This document shows, one piece after another, positions 13,625 to 51,372 of a stretch of 64,000 nt of DNA. Source of the stretch: Bacilli bacterium (GTDB lineage Bacteria; Bacillota_I; Bacilli_A; RF39; UBA660); contig JAFXTH010000014.1 of NCBI GenBank assembly GCA_017525035.1, positions 7,650 to 71,649 of the forward strand. Reading direction: 5' to 3'. Below the pieces are notes generated by a model. The model saw only the letters and a list, made by a program, of their open reading frames with translations. It was not told where the DNA came from and did not search any database. Both the position numbers and the translations under genes were made by a program. Position 1 is the first letter of the stretch. Every line of letters starts with the position of its first letter.

Positions 13625-14561
13625 AATTTGTTTAATTATTTGTTGGTTTGGAAAATTCCCAAATTATTTTGAATTATGGGAAAAAAGTTGTGGAAATAAT
13701 CCGAATATTGATTTTTTTGTAATTACAAATAACGATTATAAATCAAAATATAGCAATATTATTGCGTATAAGTTTGACTATAAAAAGATAAATGCTCTAT
13801 TGTCAAAAAAACTAAATTTAGATATAAATATTGAAAAACCATATAAATTTTGCGATTTTAAACCTGTTTATGGAATTGTTTTCTCAGATTATATAAAAAA
13901 ATATGATTTTTGGGGTCACTGTGATATGGATCAAATATTTGGTGATATATCAACATTTTTAAATGATAGCATTTTGAATGCATACGACAGAGTAAACCAT
14001 CTAGGCCATTTTACTTTGTATAGAAATACCTATCGAATAAATAATTTATATAAAGAAAATGGAGCAAAATTCGATTATAAAAAAGTTTTTACATCAAAAG
14101 AGAATTTTGCCTTTGATGAATTTTCAGGAGTAAATTTGATTTTTAACAAAAACCATATAAAAACTTATGAAATAAATGACTTTGCAGATATTGATGTTAA
14201 ACATAAAAGATATTTGGCAAATAACTTAAAAAACTATAATAAACAATACTTTGAATTTAATAATGGTAAGTTATATCAAGTTTTTTTTGAAAGACGATGG
14301 AAAAAAAAGCCATTACTATACTTGCATTTTCAAAAAAAACATCCTGTTATTTCAATTAAAGATTATCATTCGGTAATAAGAATTGGAAAAGAAGGTATCA
14401 CAGATGATTTTAATCAGTTAGATATCAATCGAAAGGGTAATTACTTTAGTGAAAAATTTGAAACAATACGTTATTATAATTCAAAAGTATGGGATTTTAT
14501 AAAAAGTAGCAATACTAAAAAAGGAATCTGGTTTATTCAAAAATTTGGAAGGGGAAAATAG
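13614..14561 (+). CDS. putative glycosyltransferase-like protein (capsule-locus family of unknown function)
   Basis: KICLIICWFGKFPNYFELW N-terminus recurs in capsule loci. Function is not established by anything visible here. Confidence 0.4.
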   Translation: MKTKICLIICWFGKFPNYFELWEKSCGNNPNIDFFVITNNDYKSKYSNIIAYKFDYKKINALLSKKLNLDINIEKPYKFCDFKPVYGIVFSDYIKKYDFWGHCDMDQIFGDISTFLNDSILNAYDRVNHLGHFTLYRNTYRINNLYKENGAKFDYKKVFTSKENFAFDEFSGVNLIFNKNHIKTYEINDFADIDVKHKRYLANNLKNYNKQYFEFNNGKLYQVFFERRWKKKPLLYLHFQKKHPVISIKDYHSVIRIGKEGITDDFNQLDINRKGNYFSEKFETIRYYNSKVWDFIKSSNTKKGIWFIQKFGRGK

Positions 14562-14562
14562 T

Positions 14563-15363
14563 ATGAAAAAGGAATTAAATTTAGAGGAAATTAAAAAGGC
14601 ATTGATTGAAATGCTAAGATACATCGATGAGATATGTAGAAAAAATAATATTGAATATTCCGTAATAGCTGGAACAATGTTAGGTGCTGTAAGACATAAA
14701 GGATTTATACCATGGGATGATGATATCGATATAGCCTTAACAAAAGATAATTATGATAAATTGCTAGATGTATTAAAAAATCAGACAGGGCGATATCAGT
14801 TATTTACCATTGATAAAACTAAAAATTATAATTTTACTTTTGCTAAGTTGGTTGATACAAAAACAATATTAATTGATGAAAAGAGTCTTAGGCCCATTGA
14901 GAATTATGGTTTGTATGTTGATATTTTTTGCTTTGTTAATACTTCTGACAATAAACTAGCAAGAAAACATCATTTCAATGAGATAAAAAGACTTAATTCA
15001 TTGATTACTCTCACAAATCCTAAACAAAAAGGAATTTCATTAACGAGAAAAATGTTGCGAAAAACGAAACGTTTGGTTTCTTGTTTTATTAGTAGAAAGA
15101 TATTAATAAATAGATTTGCTAAAGTTATTAACAAATATTACGGCAAAAAAACAAAATATATGGTTCCCATTTTCTTTGTTGCAGGTGTCGAAAATGAAAT
15201 AATTGATACGCCAAAAGAATATGTTGATTTAACTTTTGAAAATATAAAAGTAATGTCTTTTTCAGAGTACAAAAAAATATTGTCAAAAAAATATGGTGAT
15301 TATATGCAATTGCCACCAGAAGAAGACAGAGTTAATCATAAAATGATAGCTTATTATAAATAG
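14563..15363 (+). CDS. licD: LicD-family phosphotransferase
   Basis: AGTMLGAVRHKGFIPWDDDIDIAL and C-terminal YGDYMQLPPEEDR. Confidence 0.8.
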   Translation: MKKELNLEEIKKALIEMLRYIDEICRKNNIEYSVIAGTMLGAVRHKGFIPWDDDIDIALTKDNYDKLLDVLKNQTGRYQLFTIDKTKNYNFTFAKLVDTKTILIDEKSLRPIENYGLYVDIFCFVNTSDNKLARKHHFNEIKRLNSLITLTNPKQKGISLTRKMLRKTKRLVSCFISRKILINRFAKVINKYYGKKTKYMVPIFFVAGVENEIIDTPKEYVDLTFENIKVMSFSEYKKILSKKYGDYMQLPPEEDRVNHKMIAYYK

Positions 15364-17871: not shown

Positions 17872-17873
17872 TA

Positions 17874-17903
17874 AGACATAATCATAAATGATTATGTCTT
17901 TTT
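17874..17903 (+). terminator. rho-independent terminator ending the first polysaccharide block
   Basis: 12-bp stem AGACATAATCAT/ATGATTATGTCT plus T-run. Confidence 0.8.
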
Positions 17904-17962
17904 GTTGAGTTATTTTATCATTAAATATATAATAATAGTTAATTATTAGTATGGAGTTATTT

Positions 17963-20536
17963 ATGCCTAGAATTAGTAGTAGAAATTTTAAAAAAAATAC
18001 AATAGATATCATAGCTAAAAGGGCAGCATATATGTGCTCTAATCCAAAATGTAATAAACAAACAGAAGGACCAGCAGACAAAAAGACAATAAGTATAGGG
18101 GAAGCTGCACATATAAATGCCGTTTCAAGAAATGGTCCAAGATATGATCCGAGTTTGCCCGATGAGTATATTTCCAGTCAAGAAAATGGATTGTGGTTAT
18201 GTAGAGAATGTCATAAAAAGATAGATAACAAAAATGATAGAAGATATACTGTTGAACTTTTAAAGAGTTGGAAAGAACAGAGAGAAACAACAGCAGAAAG
18301 AAATCTTGGGATACCTAGGCCAACAATAGAACCATCAAATTATTCATATAATGAAATAGTAGATAATGAAAATATTAAGAGCAATGACGATAGTATTATA
18401 TTAACTAACAATTATAAACAAATAACAAAAGAATTGCTTAGTAATCTTAATGGTGTTGATGGAGAGTTAGCTAATTATATTTTTAATGACAAGACAAAAG
18501 AATATGAATCTGATTTAAACAATAGCTTAAGTTCTATTATTAAATGGTTTGTAGGGCAAAGAGATTTTCCAGTTAAAGATATTAACACTGTATATGATTA
18601 TTTTAATGCTGAAAAAATAAAAGTAAATAAGAGGGTTCTGAGTAGTAGAAGAAATGCTTTAATTAATTATTTCACTGGAAATATTGACAGTTCAAAAAAT
18701 ATTTATAGTAGATTGTATAACATAATCAATAAAAAAGATTATAAAGTTGATGACTGGATTTATGATGATTATCTTGTGGATGGTAGATTAATTATTGATA
18801 TTTTTGGAAAGGTTAATAAAAAGTACTATGACAATAAGTATGCAATTCAATTATCTATGCAGAAACATTACGTATTTTATCCTTACATAGATAAAATAGA
18901 AAAAGACATTTTTAATTCATCATTTAATAATACAATAAAATACAAGTATAAAAGAAGAAACACTTACTATTATGGAATGGGATTGGAAGGAATTTTCAAT
19001 GATATTCAAAGAGCAGTATTTATAACTATTATATATGGATCAATAGCTAATCTATTAAATATTAGAAATATGATGTCAAAAGTATTAATGATTTATGCTG
19101 ATAGATTAGATGATGATGAACTTTATGAATGGGCATTATTATTCTATGTTATGTGTGGTAATTATGATAACTACAAGTTAATATTAGAAAAAGTATCTTG
19201 TAAATATAGAGGACTAGAATCAGAAAGTTTTATTAGTCGTGTATTAAATTTGCGTAGTTCAATTACAAAATATACTGAAAATAATTTCGATATATTTATA
19301 TATGATACCTTTGGAAGATATCTTGATGATAAAAAATATGATATCTATGAAAGAAGAATATTGAAATTATTAAACAGCAATTATGTACCAGTTGTTAACA
19401 GTACAATTAAAAGTTTATATAGTAACATTCCAAGGTTTAAAAGAAAAGACAAACTTCTTGAATTCTTAAATAAGTATGTAAAAAAAGGTGGTTATAGGCA
19501 AGTACAAGAAGTTATAAAATATCTTAATTATAATGAACTGGGCGGCATTAATAAAAACTTACTAAAGGAAATAATCAAAAAGATAATAGACTCAAAAGAT
19601 TATTTAATAATAACTAATTTATTAGTAGAAATAAAGAAAATTGAAAAAATAAATGATTATGATGAAATTCTATTAAAAGAAAATACAGATGATAATCTCA
19701 TATATGAATTAAACAAAGATAATAAATTTACATCGAGAAAATTACAATTAATAGTTGATGAGTTATCAAAAAGGATTGAAGATAATATAATAACCGGTGC
19801 TGTGACAAGTTATTCGACAAATTATAAAATTTTGCCTAATTTTTTTGATAGAAGTAATAGTTCAAAAGATAGAATAATAACTGAAAATATTTTCCCACTA
19901 TGTGAAAAATGTTTATCTTCAAATAAAGTAGAATATATTGAGAAAATAAAATTATTAAGGACATTGATGTATATATTTTATTTTGATGAAAGATATAGTG
20001 ATAAAATAAAAGATATTGTATCTAAAACAGTTAAGGATAGTAATACTGGTATGTTTGATGAAGAAATAAGTGATGTATTTATAGAAGCCTATTTAATATT
20101 CTTTGACTATGTTTTTGGTGAAATTGATTTTATTGAGATGATAAGAAAATATATAGATATCTCTAATAATGAATATGTGTTTGAAGAAATAGGAATTGTA
20201 CTGGAGCATGTTTTAAAAAAAGAAAGTATAAATATTGAATCGAAAGAAATGTTAATATTATTTATACAACAAAAGATTAATTCGAATATATCAAGTGATA
20301 GAATTACTGCAATTAAACTTACAAGATACCTATATAATACTGAATTATTCGATGAGATATACGATGTTTTATATAGTAGATCAATTGACTCAAGTTACAA
20401 TGAAATGAGAACAATAATGTCAGTTGTAAACGAGTTGGATAAGAGAGACAAAAAAATTAAGGCAATTTGTTATAACTTAATTAATAATAGAAATTATAAT
20501 ATCAAATATATGGGGAAAAAATATTTAAAACAATAA
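17963..20536 (+). CDS. HNH (His-Me finger) nuclease domain fused to a ~750-aa helical region of unknown function
   Basis: CSNPKC...EAAHINAVSRNGPRYD...NGLWLCRECHKKIDN (about 18020-18235). The rest has no recognisable motif. ATG 17963 sits behind GGAG. Confidence 0.6.
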   Translation: MPRISSRNFKKNTIDIIAKRAAYMCSNPKCNKQTEGPADKKTISIGEAAHINAVSRNGPRYDPSLPDEYISSQENGLWLCRECHKKIDNKNDRRYTVELLKSWKEQRETTAERNLGIPRPTIEPSNYSYNEIVDNENIKSNDDSIILTNNYKQITKELLSNLNGVDGELANYIFNDKTKEYESDLNNSLSSIIKWFVGQRDFPVKDINTVYDYFNAEKIKVNKRVLSSRRNALINYFTGNIDSSKNIYSRLYNIINKKDYKVDDWIYDDYLVDGRLIIDIFGKVNKKYYDNKYAIQLSMQKHYVFYPYIDKIEKDIFNSSFNNTIKYKYKRRNTYYYGMGLEGIFNDIQRAVFITIIYGSIANLLNIRNMMSKVLMIYADRLDDDELYEWALLFYVMCGNYDNYKLILEKVSCKYRGLESESFISRVLNLRSSITKYTENNFDIFIYDTFGRYLDDKKYDIYERRILKLLNSNYVPVVNSTIKSLYSNIPRFKRKDKLLEFLNKYVKKGGYRQVQEVIKYLNYNELGGINKNLLKEIIKKIIDSKDYLIITNLLVEIKKIEKINDYDEILLKENTDDNLIYELNKDNKFTSRKLQLIVDELSKRIEDNIITGAVTSYSTNYKILPNFFDRSNSSKDRIITENIFPLCEKCLSSNKVEYIEKIKLLRTLMYIFYFDERYSDKIKDIVSKTVKDSNTGMFDEEISDVFIEAYLIFFDYVFGEIDFIEMIRKYIDISNNEYVFEEIGIVLEHVLKKESINIESKEMLILFIQQKINSNISSDRITAIKLTRYLYNTELFDEIYDVLYSRSIDSSYNEMRTIMSVVNELDKRDKKIKAICYNLINNRNYNIKYMGKKYLKQ

Positions 20537-20548
20537 TTTGATAAAGAA

Positions 20549-20576
20549 GATATACCATTGGTATATTCTTTTTTTG
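20549..20576 (+). terminator. rho-independent terminator
   Basis: AGATATACC-att-GGTATATT hairpin plus T-run. Confidence 0.55.
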
Positions 20577-20598
20577 TTATCTATATGTAAACTTTTAT

Positions 20599-20627
20599 TT
20601 GAATTATATATTGTTCTTTAATATAAT
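20599..20627 (+). promoter_or_regulatory. near-consensus sigma-A promoter
   Basis: TTGAAT (20599-20604), 17-nt spacer, TATAAT (20622-20627). Confidence 0.6.
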
Positions 20628-20781
20628 AGAGGCGAGTAGTCTTATACAAGGATTTTTCAATGTTAATTGTGCTCTTAGACTAAGTTGGTTGTTTAATCAC
20701 AAGTTGGAAGGTTCTGTACAGGGAAGAGATGGTGCAATACCATCAATCTTTTATTTATGCCAACTAGAAGGAGTGATTTTT

Positions 20782-20859
20782 ATGAATTTTAATTTATCTA
20801 TAAGTATAGTAGTTAATGTTTTATTTGCTCTTTTCTCTTTTAGAAAATTCCTTGTATAA
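20782..20859 (+). CDS. 25-aa hydrophobic peptide (type I toxin-like or leader peptide)
   Basis: GAAGGAG RBS 8 nt upstream of the ATG. Peptide is MNFNLSISIVVNVLFALFSFRKFLV. The last codons and stop pair with the predicted mRNA 5' end. Confidence 0.4.
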   Translation: MNFNLSISIVVNVLFALFSFRKFLV

Positions 20860-20891
20860 GAGTATTCGTTGCATAGAAGGAGGATAAAATT

Positions 20892-21575
20892 ATGGATGAT
20901 GATAAATATAAAATTCAAAGAATATATTATCTGTTAGAAGGTATGAGGGATAGTATTGAACCACGTGACGACATAAATGTTGATAATAACACAGTAAAAA
21001 CATATAACATTTTATTGAATGATTTGATGAAGTGTACCGGTGAACCGTTTGAAGCATATAAGTTTGATGACAAAGACACACCATATGGTAGATATTTTTT
21101 ATATAGAATAAATCCAGTTATTAATTATTTAAAGCATATGCATATTGAAACATCTGAGTATCAAATAGAAAAAATAGGGGCATTGTACAAATCTCTTGAA
21201 GATAAAGAACTAAGAAAAAGATGTGAAGACATTCTTTTAGGAGATGCTGCCTTTGATAGAGCAATTAATCAAGCTACACAAGTTTTAGAAGATAGAATAA
21301 AGAAAAAAGCCAATTTATCTAGAACTCCTTTAACAGGGTTAAGCTTAGTTTCAAGAGCTATACACAAGGATTTAAATGAAACAATTATTAAATTAAGTGA
21401 TGAGCCAAATGTCCAAGAGGGTTATTCTAATTTATTTAAAGGAGTAATAGGTATTTACAGGAATCCTACGCATCATTCATTAACTTATAATTGTAGTCGG
21501 GAATATGCTTTAAAAACGTGTGCATTTATAGATGATTTATTAAAAGAAATAGATAAGGGGCAAGTGGTAAAATAA
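20892..21575 (+). CDS. TIGR02391 (Hypoth_Ymh)-type protein with HEPN-like R-N-x3-H motif
   Basis: C-terminal LFKGVIGIYRNPTHHSL...REYALKTCAFIDDLL. RNPTHH lies at 21459-21476. RBS GAAGGAGG. Confidence 0.55.
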   Translation: MDDDKYKIQRIYYLLEGMRDSIEPRDDINVDNNTVKTYNILLNDLMKCTGEPFEAYKFDDKDTPYGRYFLYRINPVINYLKHMHIETSEYQIEKIGALYKSLEDKELRKRCEDILLGDAAFDRAINQATQVLEDRIKKKANLSRTPLTGLSLVSRAIHKDLNETIIKLSDEPNVQEGYSNLFKGVIGIYRNPTHHSLTYNCSREYALKTCAFIDDLLKEIDKGQVVK

Positions 21576-21629
21576 TTATACTGTTAACTAAAATAGGCAT
21601 AATCATTTATAATTGTGCTTTTTCTATAT

Positions 21630-21652
21630 AAAAAAGAGCAGATTAACTGCTC
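21630..21652 (-). terminator. rho-independent terminator on the minus strand
   Basis: Minus strand reads GAGCAG-ttaat-CTGCTC followed by T6. Confidence 0.65.
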
Positions 21653-21771
21653 ATGAAAGGATGCTGTACTGTCCTATGTAAAAGTTCCCTATAAACGTGG
21701 ATTTGAGCAGGACAGGTATCTTTGAAAAACAAGATACATAGGGAACTCAAAACCGCCTTCAAAACTTTCAT
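21643..21771 (-). CDS. 42-aa peptide with hydrophobic N-terminus (candidate type I toxin) or structured small RNA
   Basis: Minus strand reads TATAAT...AAAGGAG-10 nt-ATG. Peptide is MKVLKAVLSSLCILFFKDTCPAQIHVYRELLHRTVQHPFMSS. The coding region is packed with inverted repeats and followed by a terminator. Confidence 0.35.
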   Translation of the reverse strand: MKVLKAVLSSLCILFFKDTCPAQIHVYRELLHRTVQHPFMSS

Positions 21772-21982
21772 TTTTATATTTCTCCTTTCATTAGTATTAT
21801 ATAATATTAAGTTACAAAACAAATAATAAAGCATATTAATAAATTACATTCTCAATATTTGCGACTAATTCTCAGTTTAAGAGATTGAAGTTCTTATGAC
21901 ACATCTAGTACTATTGAGTTGTAATTGATGTCTTGCATCTTATTTTTATAATAATATGCATGGTGTTGAAGTAGGAGGATTA

Positions 21983-24115
21983 ATGAAGTTAGAATTTTTA
22001 AAATTGAAAAAAGAAAATATTTTTTGTGATGATTTTAACCGTCTTAGTAGAAATAACATTATTGATTTTGATGAATCAAAAATAAATATTTTATATGCAC
22101 CAAATGGTGTCGGTAAAAGTACATTTTGCAAAACTTTAAAAGGTGATGGTGAGTTTGAGCTTAATTATAATGGGATATCTTATGACAATACTAATTGCAA
22201 TATCTTTCATATTATAAGTGACCAAAACAGCAGAAACATCATAGAAGGTGATGCTAAAGATTTTTTACTTGGTGATAATATTGTAAAAGAATTTGATTTA
22301 AGAGAGTGGCTTAATCAAAAGTTTTTAGATATATTTAATACACTAAAAGGTAGTTATAAAGATAAGTTAAACATAGCAAAAAAAACTGATAAGAAAATAG
22401 AATGGCTTGATAAAGATAGTGTGGAATTAGTTCAAAGAATAACAAAGAATGGCTCAAAACCAGCTGACATTGATTTAGATGATTATTTAAGTTATATATC
22501 TAGCTTAGAACAGGTGGAAATTGGTGAGTATGAAGAGGAAAAGTTAGAGTATATTAAAAATGATTCAAATACGGAATTGATAAACGAATTATTAAATATA
22601 AGGGATATAACAGGAAACGAAAAATTCTCAAAAATAGAACAATGCGATGATGCTGTGCTAATACTTAATAAGTATCATGATTTAACCAATTGTATTGTAT
22701 GTGATAACGAAAATATAAATGCTGATGACCTAATATCTTCGAAAAAGCAGCAAAAAGATGTTATAATTAATGGGCTTGATATTAGGGATAAAAACATATT
22801 AGATAGAATAATCAATAGAATTTCAGATGATGATGTGTTTGACATTAAGCACACTCTTACTAATGCTATAGTTACGGGAAGTATACAAGAAGTAAATGAC
22901 TTGTTGGCTACTATTAATTACTATAAAACGGTTTTTTCAAAAATATCAAACAATATATTAAAAAACTCAATTCCTATTGAATTTATTGAAAAATATAATG
23001 AATATAAGATTATGTTGAGCAATGAATTGAATTTTTCAGATGAAGATCTTCTTTTTATTGAAAAGTTTATAGCAGATAATATTGGTAAAGAAATAAAATT
23101 GTGCCGTAAAGATAAGAAAATAGCAATAACGCTTAATTCTGAAGATTTTTTAGGAGTTGAACGTCAGAACTTAAAATTAAGTTCTGGAGAACAAAACTTT
23201 ATTTCTTTGACCTTTGAATTGTTGAAAGCTAGAAATATGCAACAAGAAATAGTAGTAATAGATGATCCAATTTCAAGTTTTGATTCTATTTTTAAAAATA
23301 AGTTAGTTTTTTCAATAATAAAATTTCTTGAAAATAAAAACGTAATAATTTTGACACATAATATTGATTTAGTAAGACTTATTGAATATCAAAAAAAGGG
23401 TAATTATGGACTCTATATATTTAATAATTATGAAGGACAAGAGAATGGATTTATTAATATTTCAAATAATGAAAAAAATATTATGATATCTATTCCTGAA
23501 TTACTTAATTTTATTCGAGGAGATCAAATTGATAATGATATTAAAGATGAAAGAATGTTTCTGTACTCATTAATCCCATTTATGCGTGGTTATGCAAATT
23601 TTATTGGCGATTGTGGTAGTAAAAACTTATTAAATAATCTTATGCATGGATATAAAACAGAAATAGTTGATTTAACAGCAATATATAATTCATTTTTTTC
23701 AAAAAAAAATAATAATAACTATAGTATTAGTGTTAGTGATTTGCTTTCAACTGATATTAATACTATTCCAGTAATAATTGATAATGAAAAGTACCCACTT
23801 TTAAATAGAGTCTTATCAAATAATTTTGTTTATTTGTTTTTAAGGCTTAAAACTGAAAAAACTTTAGTTGATAAATATGTTATAAATACCAATCATAAGG
23901 ATCAGTTGGCAAGTATAATTTATGAAGCCTTTAAAACTGACACACCAGATAATATTAAGATGAAAGTCTTCTTTTTTTCGAAGAAGACATTGCTTAATGA
24001 GTTCAATCATTTTGATGGTAATATGAACATATTCCAACCTGCAATTGATATTTCTGAAAAAATATTAAATAAAGAAAAAAGTGAAATAATTGATATGTTG
24101 AATTCTTTATTATAA
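21983..24115 (+). CDS. AAA_13-type ABC ATPase, RloC/PrrC-like (candidate anticodon nuclease)
   Basis: Walker A APNGVGKST, a long insert containing CIVC (22691-22702), signature LSSGEQ, Walker B VVIDDPISSFD, and a ~230-aa C-terminal domain. ATG 21983 sits behind AGGAGG. Confidence 0.55.
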   Translation: MKLEFLKLKKENIFCDDFNRLSRNNIIDFDESKINILYAPNGVGKSTFCKTLKGDGEFELNYNGISYDNTNCNIFHIISDQNSRNIIEGDAKDFLLGDNIVKEFDLREWLNQKFLDIFNTLKGSYKDKLNIAKKTDKKIEWLDKDSVELVQRITKNGSKPADIDLDDYLSYISSLEQVEIGEYEEEKLEYIKNDSNTELINELLNIRDITGNEKFSKIEQCDDAVLILNKYHDLTNCIVCDNENINADDLISSKKQQKDVIINGLDIRDKNILDRIINRISDDDVFDIKHTLTNAIVTGSIQEVNDLLATINYYKTVFSKISNNILKNSIPIEFIEKYNEYKIMLSNELNFSDEDLLFIEKFIADNIGKEIKLCRKDKKIAITLNSEDFLGVERQNLKLSSGEQNFISLTFELLKARNMQQEIVVIDDPISSFDSIFKNKLVFSIIKFLENKNVIILTHNIDLVRLIEYQKKGNYGLYIFNNYEGQENGFINISNNEKNIMISIPELLNFIRGDQIDNDIKDERMFLYSLIPFMRGYANFIGDCGSKNLLNNLMHGYKTEIVDLTAIYNSFFSKKNNNNYSISVSDLLSTDINTIPVIIDNEKYPLLNRVLSNNFVYLFLRLKTEKTLVDKYVINTNHKDQLASIIYEAFKTDTPDNIKMKVFFFSKKTLLNEFNHFDGNMNIFQPAIDISEKILNKEKSEIIDMLNSLL

Positions 24116-24179
24116 AGTATATGTTCACTTGTGTATACATTCGTTTTTCTATGTTATTATCTTTTTGAGGTGACCAATT

Positions 24180-24788
24180 ATGACCAATATATTATTACAT
24201 TTCAATATAAGAGTTGTCTATAATCAGTTTAAAGATAATGAGACTGATACTAATTATGATATTAAAGAGTTTATTGATTCTAATATGACATTAAAAGAAT
24301 CTATTGATTATATTTTTAACTTATATAATATTAAATTATCTAAAGAACAAAAGAAACATAAGTATACTAATTTACCTGAATATATATTTGGATGTTTTAG
24401 TTCATCATCTTTTGATTATAATGAAGATGAAGTTATGAACACTAAGATAGGTGTGCTTGAAGAATATTTTAAAATATCTGAAAGAATACTTTCTATACAT
24501 TATGTAGATGGTATTGGTGGTACTCTTGGAGAAAGTGAAGGAATAATATATTTTTTTCATACAAGAGAAAAAGATCTTCATAATACTCCACATATTCATT
24601 GCTGGTATTCTGGTGAAGAGTTTAGAGTGAATCTTAAAACTTTAAAGATAATAGATGATTCTTTTAAATCAAGAAAAAAGACTAAACTAGCTATGGAAGT
24701 AGTTACTAGAAATAAAGATGAATTTATTAGAATATGGAACTTAGCAGTAGTGAAAGGTCTTCCCTTTGAGTTTAAGGGAGAAATATAA
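24180..24788 (+). CDS. DUF4160-like domain protein with a ~110-aa N-terminal extension
   Basis: IYFFHTREKDLHNTPHIHCWYSGEEFRVNL resembles the DUF4160 core (..F....H.PPHFHA.Y.g.e..). Confidence 0.4.
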   Translation: MTNILLHFNIRVVYNQFKDNETDTNYDIKEFIDSNMTLKESIDYIFNLYNIKLSKEQKKHKYTNLPEYIFGCFSSSSFDYNEDEVMNTKIGVLEEYFKISERILSIHYVDGIGGTLGESEGIIYFFHTREKDLHNTPHIHCWYSGEEFRVNLKTLKIIDDSFKSRKKTKLAMEVVTRNKDEFIRIWNLAVVKGLPFEFKGEI

Positions 24789-24837
24789 GAAAGTTATATT
24801 TTAGTAAAATTTAATATATTTAACTTTGAATATTTAG

Positions 24838-24877
24838 AAGTACTAAGAAGAATTAATATTTTTCTTAGTACTTTTTT
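24838..24877 (+). terminator. rho-independent terminator
   Basis: 12-bp stem AAGTACTAAGAA/TTCTTAGTACTT plus T-run. Confidence 0.75.
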
Positions 24878-24953
24878 ATTGAATTTAATAAATTGCTAGT
24901 TTGTAATACTTTTGATATTGAATTATTATTAGTTCCTAAGAAGGAGAAGTAAG

Positions 24954-25751
24954 ATGAATAACATAGAAATTAATAATAGTTTATTTGAAGATATTAAACA
25001 TGTTGATGAAGAAGGTAACGAATATTGGAATGCACGAGAACTAAAAAATGTGCTTGGATATGTTCAGTGGAGAAGGTTCAACGACGTAATTAATAAATCT
25101 AAAGATGCATGTAAAAATAGTAATTACAATGTGGTAAACCATTTTGCCGACATTGGCAAAATGGTTAAGACTGGAAATTCAATAAGAAGAATTTTGGATT
25201 ATAAATTAACTCGATATGCTTGCTATTTAATTGCACAAAATGGAGATAGTAGAAAACAAGTAATTGCTCTTGCTCAAACATATTTTGCAATACAAACTAG
25301 AAAACAAGAACTTATTGAAAAAGAATATGAGTTGTTAACAGAAGATGAAAAAAGACTATATCAGAGAAATTTAACAAAGAAAGGGAATTATTCTTTAAAT
25401 CAAGTTGCTAAAAATGTTGGTGTTAAAAACTTTGATAAATTTCATAATGCTGGATATAAAGGTTTGTATAATGGTGAAACGGCAAATGATATTGCTAAGC
25501 GTAAAGGATTAAGATATAGAGAAGATATTTTAGATAATATGGGAAGTGTAGAATTAGCTGCTAATTTATTTAGAATAACACAAACGGAAGAAACTCTTAA
25601 GAATAAAAAAATAAAAGGTGAGAACAATGCTAGTAAAACTCATAATAAAGTTGGTAAAATAGTTAGAAAAGCTATTAAAGATGCTGGTGGAACAATGCCA
25701 GAAGACCTGACTACGCCTGATAAGAGTTTGAAAGAATTAGGGAAAAAATAA
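24954..25751 (+). CDS. dinD: DNA damage-inducible protein D (DinD family)
   Basis: WNARELKNVLGY..W..F..VI.K....C, KLTRYACYLIAQNGDSRKQVIALAQTYFAIQTR. Confidence 0.7.
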   Translation: MNNIEINNSLFEDIKHVDEEGNEYWNARELKNVLGYVQWRRFNDVINKSKDACKNSNYNVVNHFADIGKMVKTGNSIRRILDYKLTRYACYLIAQNGDSRKQVIALAQTYFAIQTRKQELIEKEYELLTEDEKRLYQRNLTKKGNYSLNQVAKNVGVKNFDKFHNAGYKGLYNGETANDIAKRKGLRYREDILDNMGSVELAANLFRITQTEETLKNKKIKGENNASKTHNKVGKIVRKAIKDAGGTMPEDLTTPDKSLKELGKK

Positions 25752-25777
25752 TATACGTTAGAATAGTATATGTTTTT

Positions 25778-26251
25778 ATGTTCATAATAATCATGGTGAT
25801 TATTATGGAACCTTATTTAAATAATCTTGCTTCTTCTCAAACATTCTTGACTATTATCTCTGGTACTTTTGTATATATCTTAAGTCAGTTCTTTATGGAG
25901 TTTATAATTGTACCTAGGAAAGATTATAAAAGAGTAAAAGAAAAGATTATATATCATGTTAAGATGTATTCACTGTATTATTTAAATCCTTATGATTTAA
26001 ATAATACAAATAATAATACTAGAGATAAAGCTGAATACGATAATGCTAGTCGTGAGATTAGACAAGTAGGGGCAGAACTATCTAGTTATATTGGTCTAAT
26101 GAGTAAGATTAGATTTATTAGAAGAAAAAGATTATTAAAAGTACAAGATGCTTTAATAGAATTATCTAGAGGGTTTATTTATAGGAAGAATAATCCTATT
26201 AAAGATAATAAAAGAGTTGTTAAGATTATTGAAGATAATTTATACAAATAA
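25778..26251 (+). CDS. small membrane-anchored hypothetical protein
   Basis: One N-terminal TM helix (LTIISGTFVYILSQFFMEFIIV). Start is ambiguous (25778/25793/25805). Confidence 0.45.
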   Translation: MFIIIMVIIMEPYLNNLASSQTFLTIISGTFVYILSQFFMEFIIVPRKDYKRVKEKIIYHVKMYSLYYLNPYDLNNTNNNTRDKAEYDNASREIRQVGAELSSYIGLMSKIRFIRRKRLLKVQDALIELSRGFIYRKNNPIKDNKRVVKIIEDNLYK

Positions 26252-26273
26252 AGATGTCATGTTGACATCTTTT
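26252..26273 (+). terminator. rho-independent terminator
   Basis: AGATGTCA-tgt-TGACATCT hairpin plus T-run. Confidence 0.6.
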
Positions 26274-26317
26274 ATTCATGTTTGTATTATAGTAAGTTAT
26301 CTTGGAGTGATTGTTAT

Positions 26318-26800
26318 ATGAAAGAATATATTATTGATTATAGTAAAAGAAATATAGAATTAGAAGAAGAGAAGAGTAAAAGTATTATTAAGGGTTGCAG
26401 TACTTTAGTACTTCTTAATGCTTTATTACTTATTCCTTTAGTAATTGCATTTTTAGAATTATTAAAGATTGATGATATTAGACTTTTTACTATCATATTT
26501 GGATTTACTATTATTGGTTTATTAATAGCAAGTATTATACTAGCTCTTCTTGGTTTAATACTTAATAAATCTTGTTTTACTAGATCTGGTAAATCATTAC
26601 TTAACTCATTATCTAAGAAAGACACAAGTAAGAAAGAATACTTTTTAGATCAAACAATTAGTGATTTAGATTCAATTTATTTAAGAAAACATATAAATAA
26701 TAGTGTTAATAAAACATTCTTATTTATATCATTTTCTCTTAATTGTGCTGCTTACTTAGTTCTAATTGGGGCGGTTATTACTATTATGATTTTTATATAG
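26318..26800 (+). CDS. small multi-TM hypothetical protein
   Basis: Two central TM helices and one C-terminal TM helix. ATG 26318 sits behind GGAGTGA. Confidence 0.5.
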   Translation: MKEYIIDYSKRNIELEEEKSKSIIKGCSTLVLLNALLLIPLVIAFLELLKIDDIRLFTIIFGFTIIGLLIASIILALLGLILNKSCFTRSGKSLLNSLSKKDTSKKEYFLDQTISDLDSIYLRKHINNSVNKTFLFISFSLNCAAYLVLIGAVITIMIFI

Positions 26801-26821
26801 AGGTAAGAACCTCTTTTTTTA
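26799..26821 (+). terminator. rho-independent terminator ending the island
   Basis: AGAGGT-aaga-ACCTCT hairpin plus T7. Confidence 0.7.
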
Positions 26822-26876
26822 ATGATAAAAAAATGATACAATTAATATATAGTTAAACTTTTTAATGGAGGATGAC

Positions 26877-27680
26877 ATGAGTATAGATACAACAAGATTT
26901 AAAAAGAAAATAGATGACATGGACAAAGTTCATGAATTACAACTAGAATTACTATCTTTTTTTGATGATGTTTGTAAAAAAAATAATTTAAGATATTTTC
27001 TTGCTGGAGGTACGCTTCTTGGTGCGGCAAGACATAAAGGTTTTATCCCTTGGGATGATGATATTGACTTAGCAATGCCAAGAGATGATTATGAGAAGTT
27101 TTTAAAACTTGCTCCAACTCTTCCAGAAGAGTATAGAGTATTAATTCCTGCTAAAACTCCTAAGTTTCATTTAGTATTTGCTAAATTAGTTAACAAATAT
27201 TATTACAATGATAGAAAAGACTTAAAAGGAAAGTATGGAATTAGAATGGATATATTCCCACTTGATGGTGTTGGTAATGATGAAAAGACTGCTATGAAGC
27301 AAGCTAAAAAGATCTTATTTATTAAAGGAATATATTCGTTGTCATTTAGAGATAATATCTTTTCTAAGCTTTTATATATGACAAGAATTCATAAGTTAGT
27401 ATATAGAAGACTTGCTAAAGCATTTAATAAATACAATTTCTACGAAAGTAAGTATGGTGGAAGTATTGTTGGTGGCTTGAAAAGATATGATGAAATCTTT
27501 GAATATAAAGTATATAGTGAACCACTTCTAATGGATTTCGAAGGTAAAAAGTTTTCGGGTATGAAATACTATGATGAGTATTTAACTAAATTATATGGTG
27601 ATTATATGAAATTACCACCAAAAGAAAAACAAGTACCAGTGCATGATCTGGACATTTATGATATGAGGGAGAGTGAATAA
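26877..27680 (+). CDS. licD: LicD-family phosphotransferase, copy 2
   Basis: AGGTLLGAARHKGFIPWDDDIDLAM and YGDYMKLPPKEKQ. Paralog of 14563..15363. Confidence 0.8.
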   Translation: MSIDTTRFKKKIDDMDKVHELQLELLSFFDDVCKKNNLRYFLAGGTLLGAARHKGFIPWDDDIDLAMPRDDYEKFLKLAPTLPEEYRVLIPAKTPKFHLVFAKLVNKYYYNDRKDLKGKYGIRMDIFPLDGVGNDEKTAMKQAKKILFIKGIYSLSFRDNIFSKLLYMTRIHKLVYRRLAKAFNKYNFYESKYGGSIVGGLKRYDEIFEYKVYSEPLLMDFEGKKFSGMKYYDEYLTKLYGDYMKLPPKEKQVPVHDLDIYDMRESE

Positions 27681-40397: not shown

Positions 40398-40532
40398 ATA
40401 GATTATCAAGAACGAGGGAGAGAATTAGCTCTATGATCTCGTACCAACCTGCATAAGCAAGGTGGTAAAGCTAATAACGATAATAATATATTGTTTATAG
40501 TAACTCCTTGATAATCTAGAAGGAGTTTTTTT
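40398..40532 (+). promoter_or_regulatory. SAM-I (S-box) riboswitch with terminator/sequestrator hairpin
   Basis: TTATCAAGA..GAGGGAGAGAATTAGCTCTATGA..CCAACC...GGTGGTAAAGCTAA..GATAA fits the S-box core. P1 is TTATC/GATAA. Terminator is AACTCCTT...AAGGAGTT plus T7 (40502-40532). Its 5' arm CTTGATAA can pair with the P1 5' strand as an antiterminator. Confidence 0.7.
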
Positions 40533-51164: not shown

Positions 51165-51372
51165 TTATATTGAATGCAAATGACGAAGACGTAATTAAAG
51201 AAAAACTTTAAGAGAGCAAGTGTTTGGTGAGAACTTGTAAGTAATCTTTAATTAAGATCACTTCTGATGCTTTTTATGGATAAGATAAAAACGGTAACGC
51301 GTTATAGTTTTAAGAAGTAATTAAGGTGGTACCACGTGGAGTAATTCGCGTCCTTTTGGGGCCACCTTTTTT
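51165..51372 (+). promoter_or_regulatory. T-box riboswitch leader (probable Ile specifier AUC)
   Basis: AGAGA bulge and GGTGAGA distal loop in Stem I. AUC at 51244-51246 in the specifier region. T-box sequence AAGGTGGTACCACG at 51323-51336. Terminator AAGGTGG...CCACCTT plus T-run. Confidence 0.8.

Follow-up and report, generated by a model that had tools for sequence, protein, structure and literature searches.

The 64,000-nucleotide stretch analyzed here (the window; contig JAFXTH010000014.1 of assembly GCA_017525035.1, positions 7,650 to 71,649 of the forward strand, from a Bacilli bacterium of the RF39 lineage) carries an insert of ~9 kb (window 17872-26864) between a GT2 glycosyltransferase gene and a LicD gene of a polysaccharide/teichoic-type locus. 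The first of the nine genes in the insert, which run from it to a 172-aa open reading frame (ORF), encodes the protein under study, in which an N-terminal HNH nuclease head is joined to a large α-helical body. The ORF extends from 17951/17963 to 20536 on the forward strand and ATG 17963 is its likely start, since a GGAG ribosome-binding site lies 6 nt upstream and an identical 857-aa product is predicted in public gene calls. With 857 codons in DNA of 25% GC and two full-length homologues (P0002 and P0003, 38% identity to the window protein), the ORF is far beyond chance expectation, and the identical 857-aa protein is found in the same neighborhood on five metagenomic contigs. Because it has a promoter-like site of its own and is flanked by terminator-like hairpins (Table 1), the gene looks like an independent transcription unit; the hairpin that follows the stop codon is supported by its folding energy and was not returned by a scan for consensus terminators.

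In a preliminary description of the locus the first ~95 residues had been read as a His-Me finger, or HNH, domain from the motifs CSNPKC, EAAHI, GPRYD and NGLWLCRECHKKIDN at about nt 18020-18235. All four are present, at nt 18035-18229, and profile searches place the domain in an immune-effector subfamily of HNH nucleases, with matches to the PADLOC models PDC-M68A (E 7.2e-25), CBASS 'Effector endonuclease' (E 9.5e-22) and SAVED_HNH (5.6e-19), a weaker one to SduA (2e-9), and further matches to several PHROGs of unknown function. Among solved structures the HNH-APAZ effector from a short-Argonaute system of the SPARHA type (9om4_A) gives the best match (E 7.3e-9), over aa 13-112 only. An AlphaFold2 (AF2) model computed from 51 family sequences, with a mean predicted local distance difference test score (pLDDT) of 87.7 and a predicted template modeling score (pTM) of 0.77, gives the domain a β-β-α core of two strands (aa 47-50 and 76-79) and a helix (aa 81-87; block pLDDT 66-90), preceded by an N-terminal helix (aa 11-20) and followed by another helix (aa 97-115). 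This model supersedes an earlier one from a three-sequence alignment, in which pLDDT was 60 and the HNH domain unfolded.

The catalytic and metal-binding residues of the head are intact. C25, C30, C80 and C83 make up a predicted CxxxxC...CxxC zinc site, and these four cysteines, together with H50, N75 and H84, are invariant in the clade of the three closest homologues. N75 and H84 align with N71 and H80 of AcaSPARHA in the 9om4 alignment, and the double mutation of those two residues abolishes AcaSPARHA nuclease activity (PMC12738770). Furthermore, an H53A mutation kills MllaSPARHA (PMC12738770), and we infer from the common GE.AHI motif, rather than from a direct Mlla alignment, that this histidine corresponds to H50 here. 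In SPARHA and Cap5 the N-terminal helix mediates HNH dimerization, and HNH domains of this type are switched on by tetramerization (PMC12738770). Elsewhere the same type is fused to P-loop STAND NTPases and to a TPR protein (P0004-P0007), which marks it as a recurrent immune output module. Judging from its motifs, the head is thus apparently active, as a bona fide nuclease of a subfamily that immune systems use as an oligomerization-activated output. The HNH-coding segment (window 18000-18200) also stands out in base composition, with 34-40% GC versus ~23% in the rest of the gene, which would fit either constraints on the amino acids of the domain or a separate acquisition of the head.

Beyond a flexible linker, the remainder of the protein is entirely helical from aa 156 to 854 in the AF2 model, where it forms ~35 helices with pLDDT mostly above 90. 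The preliminary description of this region as Asn/Tyr/Ile/Lys-rich and all-helical, possibly HEAT-like, agrees with its composition (I 12.6%, K 10.4%, N 9.7%, Y 8.7%) and with the outcome of the Foldseek comparison that it had called for: searches of the PDB return only generic HEAT/ARM/TPR solenoids (PP2A-A, CAND1, AP-2, importin; E ~3e-4, template modeling (TM) score at most 0.31), and a search of BFVD yields nothing significant, with TM scores of at most 0.35 over all searches. The top Foldseek matches include neither a specific functional relative nor a DSR2 structure. At the sequence level the body has no match in Pfam even at E<=10, and none in NCBIfam, PADLOC or PDB sequences; a body profile likewise finds nothing in the PDB, and a profile of alignment A3 gives weak HEAT/TPR/NDT matches there. 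The earlier term 'unannotatable' therefore holds as regards these libraries, but the body is no orphan, as it belongs to a family of at least 238 clusters with a conserved core. That family was revealed only by an exhaustive HMMER search with a body profile, which retrieved 238 representative clusters, 125 of them at E<=1e-10; word-index searches had returned two full-length relatives with the whole protein and three proteins with the 51-sequence profile.

Conservation along the body is markedly uneven, with the highest information content at aa 271-390 and the lowest at aa 570-840. D273, R275, D310, G359 and S360 show no variation among 51 diverse members drawn from all head classes (see below), and R229, A232, W265, D269, N276, Q294, P307, R311, T362, G451, R491 and K661 are kept in at least 90% of the sequences. 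The family motifs W..DD.L.DGRN, YP..DR and YGS(I)T(H) are all recognizable in the window protein, which conforms to them save at three positions considered further on. We read this pattern as a conserved N-proximal 'switch/hub' followed by more variable C-terminal repeats, the latter being a candidate recognition surface. The polar core could serve as an oligomerization interface, a head-docking site or a ligand pocket, and its strong conservation suggests that the body may be more than a passive repeat scaffold. Two further readings of the region, a Fic-like or terpene-synthase-like interpretation of the DD..ID.GRN motif and a hidden PD-(D/E)xK or P-loop domain within aa 120-370, found neither profile nor fold support and were dropped.

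Table 1. Coordinates of the HNH-solenoid gene, its domains and signals in the window, with two examples of the mini-ORF found upstream of headless relatives (locus coordinates).
Feature	Position	Strand	Basis or remarks
Terminator-like hairpin ending the upstream glycosyltransferase gene and separating it from the HNH-solenoid gene	17873..17900	+	12-bp stem, then T run
Promoter-like site TTGAGT-17-TATAAT, 30 nt upstream of the start codon	17905..17933	+	Consensus match only, 10/12
Ribosome-binding site GGAG, 6 nt before ATG 17963	17953..17956	+	Read directly
Coding sequence, 857 aa + stop: HNH head, linker, α-solenoid body	17963..20536	+	ORF list, homologues
HNH / His-Me finger head, aa 1-117	17963..18313	+	PADLOC aa 6-118, PDB 9om4 aa 13-112, AF2
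CSNPKC, aa 25-30; predicted zinc ligands C25, C30	18035..18052	+	Aligned to CSFPGC of 9om4; invariant in three close homologues
EAAHI, aa 47-51; H50 predicted general base, E47 the SPARHA/Cap5 'bridge' Glu	18101..18115	+	Aligned to GEIAHI of 9om4
GPRYD, aa 58-62	18134..18148	+	Motif location in translation
NGLWLCRECHKKIDN, aa 75-89; N75, C80, C83, H84, D88	18185..18229	+	9om4 alignment
Flexible linker, aa 118-151	18314..18415	+	pLDDT below 50; poorly conserved, gapped in alignments
All-α HEAT-like solenoid body, aa 152-857	18416..20533	+	AF2, Foldseek, family search
Most conserved body core, aa ~190-370	18530..19072	+	W195..G198..FP, R229..A232, W265..D269..D273-G-R275, P307..D310, G359-S360
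Terminator-like hairpin and T run right after the stop codon	20539..20579	+	Minimum free energy (MFE) -12 kcal/mol, z = -3.4
Mini-ORF, locus L104	L104:614-805		Upstream of body gene
Mini-ORF, locus L093	L093:1493-1666		Upstream of body gene

Mapping the body onto the 150 best of the 238 clusters and clustering the sequence that precedes it resolves five architectures, in all of which the head, where there is one, occupies the same N-terminal position. The most populated class (81 of these 150 representatives) carries a head of ~150 aa with an invariant Glu, and 20 of 22 sampled heads match Pfam DUF4062 (best 1e-7), with weaker TIR/NDT/SLOG matches; DUF4062 has been shown experimentally to be a TIR-like NADase with antiphage function, which is switched on by way of an auxiliary region at the C-terminus (bioRxiv 10.64898/2026.05.01.722283, 10.64898/2026.06.25.731849). 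HNH heads account for nine of the 150, one protein (P0009) has a SMEK_N head (E 2e-21) that also matches the model of a pAgo-associated restriction endonuclease (REase), and another (P0107) has a calcineurin-like metallophosphoesterase head, whose match to a CBASS effector model (E 1e-43) spans 450 residues. The fifth class consists of 'headless' proteins of 765-790 aa. A Walker A motif is found neither in the window protein nor in any of 153 body-family proteins, the members scanned with Pfam show no NTPase domain, and PADLOC leaves the body blank in every head class.

In a body-only neighbor-joining tree, computed without bootstrap, the SMEK-headed P0009 nests inside the HNH clade of the window protein and a second HNH clade (P0010-13) adjoins the headless clade, which indicates that heads have been exchanged on closely related bodies. 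The family is patchily distributed, with 28 + 12 loci among 185,579 species genomes, all of them in gut or rumen metagenome-assembled genomes (MAGs) of Bacilli, 'Tenericutes', Erysipelotrichaceae and Clostridia; a scan of the genome collection with a three-sequence body alignment had returned nothing. Post-2023 defense catalogues aside, neither the body family nor its range of heads nor the pairing with a mini-ORF (see below) appears to have been described in the libraries and literature searched.

The headless members begin with a conserved, Asn/Gly-rich motif of ~20 aa (...KMNNK...F.NNGDV(I/V)NGDK...), and in 12 of 25 headless genome loci (L091, L093, L098, L100, L103, L104, L106, L107, L109, L110, L113 and L114) the body gene is immediately preceded by a mini-ORF of ~50-60 aa that overlaps its start. 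Its product consists of one hydrophobic Gly-zipper transmembrane helix (IIIPLIAGFIGGSIGN), a basic linker and a C-terminal copy of the headless N-terminal motif. Divergent variants of the motif match within a locus (L107, L113, L093 and L110), and motif similarity averages 78 within loci versus 59 between loci, the common variant being non-discriminating. The arrangement resembles the gene-pair logic of amyloid or templating signaling, as exemplified by the E. coli Bab/Agp abortive-infection system, a validated amyloid-signaling pair in which one motif is common to a non-NLR TPR protein and a membrane-targeting protein of 109 aa. By analogy, the headless relatives would be Agp-like non-NLR repeat proteins with an N-terminal motif, and the tiny upstream protein, with its hydrophobic helix and C-terminal copy of the same motif, resembles Bab. 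The parallel does not, however, apply to the window gene; the motif and both proteins are unrelated to BASS11, Bab and Agp, and the amyloid nature of the motif is putative. Since the headless motif is shared with the mini-ORF product, the N-terminus of the body would be an output position that is triggered by bringing N-termini together, and such clustering would answer the same need in the HNH heads, as in Cap5/SPARHA, and in the TIR-like NADase heads.

The preliminary description had named a consistent housekeeping setting of homologues as contrary to its immune reading. Such a setting is not seen; the contexts of the relatives are variable and rich in mobile-element and defense genes. Among the HNH-headed relatives, P0002 adjoins DpnII, DUF5677 and serine recombinase genes and P0003 lies among unknown genes, while the gene in locus L088 adjoins a serine recombinase, a YhcG nuclease and a reverse transcriptase and that in L089 a tyrosine integrase and a phage replisome organizer. 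Over the 28 + 12 loci the recurrent neighbors are Tyr integrases (9 loci), Ser recombinases (8 or more loci), Abi_2, YhcG, Bro-N/DinD, Fic-HTH, type III restriction-modification and AAA_15/21 genes, with varying housekeeping genes beyond; adjacency to defense and mobile genes was judged qualitatively. No conserved partner gene recurs over the relatives' loci, except for the mini-ORF of the headless class. In two loci with DUF4062-headed members (L120:7039-7953 and L121:34-534), a Fic/DOC + HTH gene lies upstream of the body gene and shares a 4-nt overlap with its start, and in a third (L119:6962-7960) such a gene lies nearby; it may be an operonic partner in that subclade.

We propose, with moderate confidence, that the window protein is a stand-alone, NTPase-less, single-chain abortive-infection sensor-effector directed against phages or other invading DNA, in which the solenoid senses the invader and the HNH heads assemble into a DNase. 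In such a protein the solenoid body (aa 152-857) would act as sensor and regulator, and the N-terminal HNH domain would be a non-specific DNase, inactive for as long as the heads remain separate. Binding of a trigger, most plausibly an invader protein, would cause the bodies to associate and gather the heads into a dimer of dimers with the composite active site of the HNH subfamily, and the ensuing degradation of DNA would stop the infected cell. The suggestion that a nuclease head on a putative sensor body makes a single-gene immune effector, already put forward in the preliminary description, draws support from the type of the head, the separate transcription unit, the partnerless loci with their mobile-element and defense genes, and the effector heads shared across the family, from which we infer the role in defense.

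The protein falls outside six known systems, namely CBASS, SPARHA, Avs/STAND, DSR2, Swarozyc/Evangelion and PDC-M68, because in each case a defining feature was looked for and not found, even though its head lies within the Cap5/SPARHA HNH subfamily. With Cap5, the HNH-SAVED effector of CBASS, and with the HNH-APAZ effector of SPARHA it shares the N-terminal helix, the CxxxxC...CxxC, GE.AHI and N...CxxCH..D motifs, and the layout of an N-terminal HNH domain joined to a C-terminal regulatory module; by analogy, head tetramerization followed by indiscriminate cleavage of double-stranded DNA is to be expected here as well. The regulatory module of the window protein is, however, a 700-aa α-solenoid: there is no SAVED match past the HNH part of the models and no APAZ domain, and the neighbors in the window include no CD-NTase/cyclase and no Argonaute. 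Proteins of the Avs / bacterial STAND-NLR type can carry the same HNH type N-terminally on C-terminal repeat sensors (P0004, P0005 and P0007), but they have the P-loop NTPase that the body family lacks. As for PDC-M68, only positions 3-112 of the 253-position PDC-M68A model are matched, which is the HNH part, and PADLOC finds no other PDC-M68 component among the eight island proteins scanned.

By analogy, the protein would work most like DSR2 or Swarozyc, with an effector head mounted on an NTPase-less sensor body. DSR2 is encoded by a single gene and combines an N-terminal SIR2 NADase head with a large all-α HEAT-like body that senses a phage protein without an NTPase. The likeness, a single-gene effector head on an all-α repeat body lacking an NTPase, is drawn from this description rather than from structure; the window protein differs in having an HNH instead of a SIR2 head, and no PADLOC DSR model matches any body of the family; the two may nonetheless be analogous in function. 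Swarozyc and Evangelion are single-gene abortive-infection proteins in which a C-terminal auxiliary region senses the phage and activates the head (bioRxiv 10.64898/2026.05.01.722283, 10.64898/2026.06.25.731849). They are linked to the family by the DUF4062 head that most members carry, whereas the window protein has an HNH domain in its place and, in contrast to its 700-aa solenoid, the auxiliary domain is a small winged-helix module in KpSwz and short in Eva01. Eva01 homologues are moreover present on 447 PLSDB plasmids, whereas tblastn of the window body or of the DUF4062-headed P0037 and P0038 finds no match there.

Several observations weigh against a sensor-effector role of this kind. 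The case for defense rests on guilt by association and on the heads, as the body itself matches nothing in PADLOC 2.0, and Pfam HNH_2 falls just under its gathering threshold (20.2 vs 21 bits). The invariant part around D273, R275, D310 and G359-S360 would suit a functional site better than a variable sensing surface, and the body may accordingly have an activity or a ligand of its own that goes beyond the sensor-effector model. Moreover, three near-invariant positions of the core carry other residues in the window protein than in the family consensus (N276L, T362A and H363N; nt 18788-18790 and 19046-19051), although its closest relatives keep N276 and T362. Headless forms are common, and no member is found on phages, plasmids or IMG/VR contigs by tblastn of the window body and a search of IMG/VR. 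Finally, the gene calls at the MAG loci come from a simple ORF caller, and their annotation covers a sample.

The conserved core can also be accommodated by a body that responds to a second messenger, be it a small molecule or a nucleotide, much as SAVED does in Cap5, with a pocket formed by D269, D273, R275, D310 and G359-S360 and a head that fires on the signal of another system. HNH and metallophosphoesterase heads are indeed modules of CBASS effectors, and the core (aa 190-370), with its five polar or small residues invariant in all head classes, is far more conserved than the C-terminal repeats. We nevertheless consider such a receptor improbable, as no cyclase, CD-NTase, TIR-signal generator or conserved partner lies beside the ~40 family loci and no ligand-binding fold appears among the Foldseek matches; nor, to our knowledge, is any all-α solenoid known as a nucleotide-signal receptor.

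The integrases and recombinases counted above, together with the phage replisome-organizer gene near the L089 member, would suit a gene that serves a mobile element, as an addiction, exclusion or competition nuclease whose solenoid binds a protein encoded by that element or by a rival one. The insert in the window has no recombinase, though, and the neighbors are mostly defense-type genes, which also travel with integrases; we regard this explanation as improbable to a similar degree, and its mechanism overlaps heavily with that of the sensor-effector proposed here. A somewhat lower probability attaches to a restriction-like enzyme dependent on DNA modification or structure, whose solenoid would bind DNA and deliver the HNH domain in the manner of Type IV HNH enzymes. 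A DNA-reader domain accompanies the nuclease in many HNH restriction enzymes (PMC12738770) and a DpnII-family gene lies beside P0002, but the known readers SRA, EVE and McrA-N are absent from the Pfam scan, the HNH domain here is N-terminal and of the oligomerization-activated Cap5/SPARHA type, and most members carry an NADase head on the same body, which would make no sense for a DNA-targeting module.

We think it very unlikely that the gene and two genes downstream of it, TIGR02391 (Hypoth_Ymh) and AAA_13/His-Me, make up one multi-gene system, in spite of their location on the same strand within 4 kb and of the matches of the AAA_13 protein to the PADLOC candidate PDC-S06 and of the Ymh protein to PD-Lambda-3_B. 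The target gene is followed by a terminator hairpin and then by a 355-nt structured spacer, and the co-occurrence of homologues with AAA_13 or TIGR02391 genes, raised as a check in the preliminary description, is not borne out: no homologue of either is present in the ~40 relatives' loci, which argues that the two downstream genes are separate island cargo. Least credible of all is a housekeeping or cell-envelope role, which the glycosyltransferase and LicD genes on both sides might suggest, because the target gene and its eight neighbors interrupt the polysaccharide cluster as an insert between the GT2 and LicD genes, homologues never occur in glycan loci save for distant GT2 matches in L101, the distribution is patchy and the catalytic HNH site is intact.

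Beyond the window protein itself, we tentatively suggest, as a reading a little less likely than not, that the solenoid represents an unrecognized family of NTPase-less single-chain pattern-recognition receptors of gut and rumen Bacillota. It might work as a universal 'clustering platform' with at least five N-terminal outputs, namely an HNH DNase, a DUF4062 NADase, a SMEK/REase-like head, a metallophosphoesterase and a self-templating motif that recruits a tiny, upstream-encoded membrane protein, for which the invariant D/R/D/GS core would be the shared switch. If so, it would add a new sensor scaffold to bacterial innate immunity, from poorly studied uncultured gut Bacilli and Clostridia, and one that defense-finding pipelines would miss, as the body family is invisible to Pfam, NCBIfam and PADLOC 2.0. 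It would also amount to a natural effector-swapping experiment, in which one body is combined with a DNase in some members, with an NADase in others, and elsewhere with either of two further hydrolase-type heads or with a motif relay to a membrane protein. It would thereby allow a direct test of whether proximity or oligomerization is the activation currency that abortive-infection effectors have in common, and the invariant polar core is a concrete place to start with mutagenesis.

As for the insert as a whole, LicD paralogues lie on either side of it (14545-15363 and 26865-27680), and neither a recombinase within 17.9-26.8 kb nor convincing att-like direct repeats around it were found; a search with the flanking GT2 gene gave no useful syntenic genome with which to define an empty site. 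Besides the HNH gene it holds TIGR02391/Hypoth_Ymh, AAA_13 ATPase, DUF4160/DhiT-like and DinD/Bro-N genes and two unknown proteins. The TIGR02391/Hypoth_Ymh gene, whose PD-Lambda-3_B match is weak, is followed by that of the 719-aa AAA_13 ATPase, which has a weak His-Me finger match beside that to PDC-S06, and the pair (window 20892-24115) is probably a separate two-gene defense candidate. The next gene (window 24180-24788) encodes a 202-aa protein of which the C-terminal 70 aa match DUF4160 and a DhiT toxin model and the N-terminal extension of ~120 aa is unannotated. The DinD/Bro-N gene (window 24954-25751; NCBIfam DinD E 6e-101, PADLOC PDC-S13 E 7.5e-101) has homologues with 62-74% identity beside body-family genes in three loci (L108:18-644, L111:472-1320 and L002:6868-7289), directly upstream of headless members in L108 and L111, and this recurrence may reflect shared island cargo or a loose association.

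The 355-nt spacer between the HNH gene and the TIGR02391 gene contains a 246-nt fold (window 20628-20873, forward strand; MFE -67.4, z = -4.5) that is closed by inverted-repeat arms of 26 nt each (20633-20658 and 20843-20868). Unusual stability is confined to the long closing stem and does not extend to the inner 166 nt, and the spacer has no match in Rfam; the fold could be a structured leader, a non-coding RNA or an insert resembling a miniature inverted-repeat transposable element. An 86-aa ORF with a TTG start in the same region (20599-20859) is absent from public gene calls and was rejected as a gene. Elsewhere in the window, a T-box leader (51171-51358) precedes the gene of a 1032-aa housekeeping protein that is probably an aminoacyl-tRNA synthetase and has its closest match, at 86%, in a roe-deer rumen 'Bacilli bacterium' MAG. 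Together with a GC content of about 26%, this match points to an uncultured low-GC gut lineage of Bacilli as the host, and the T-box leader and an ordinary S-adenosylmethionine (SAM) riboswitch (40400-40486) both fit a Bacillota chromosome.

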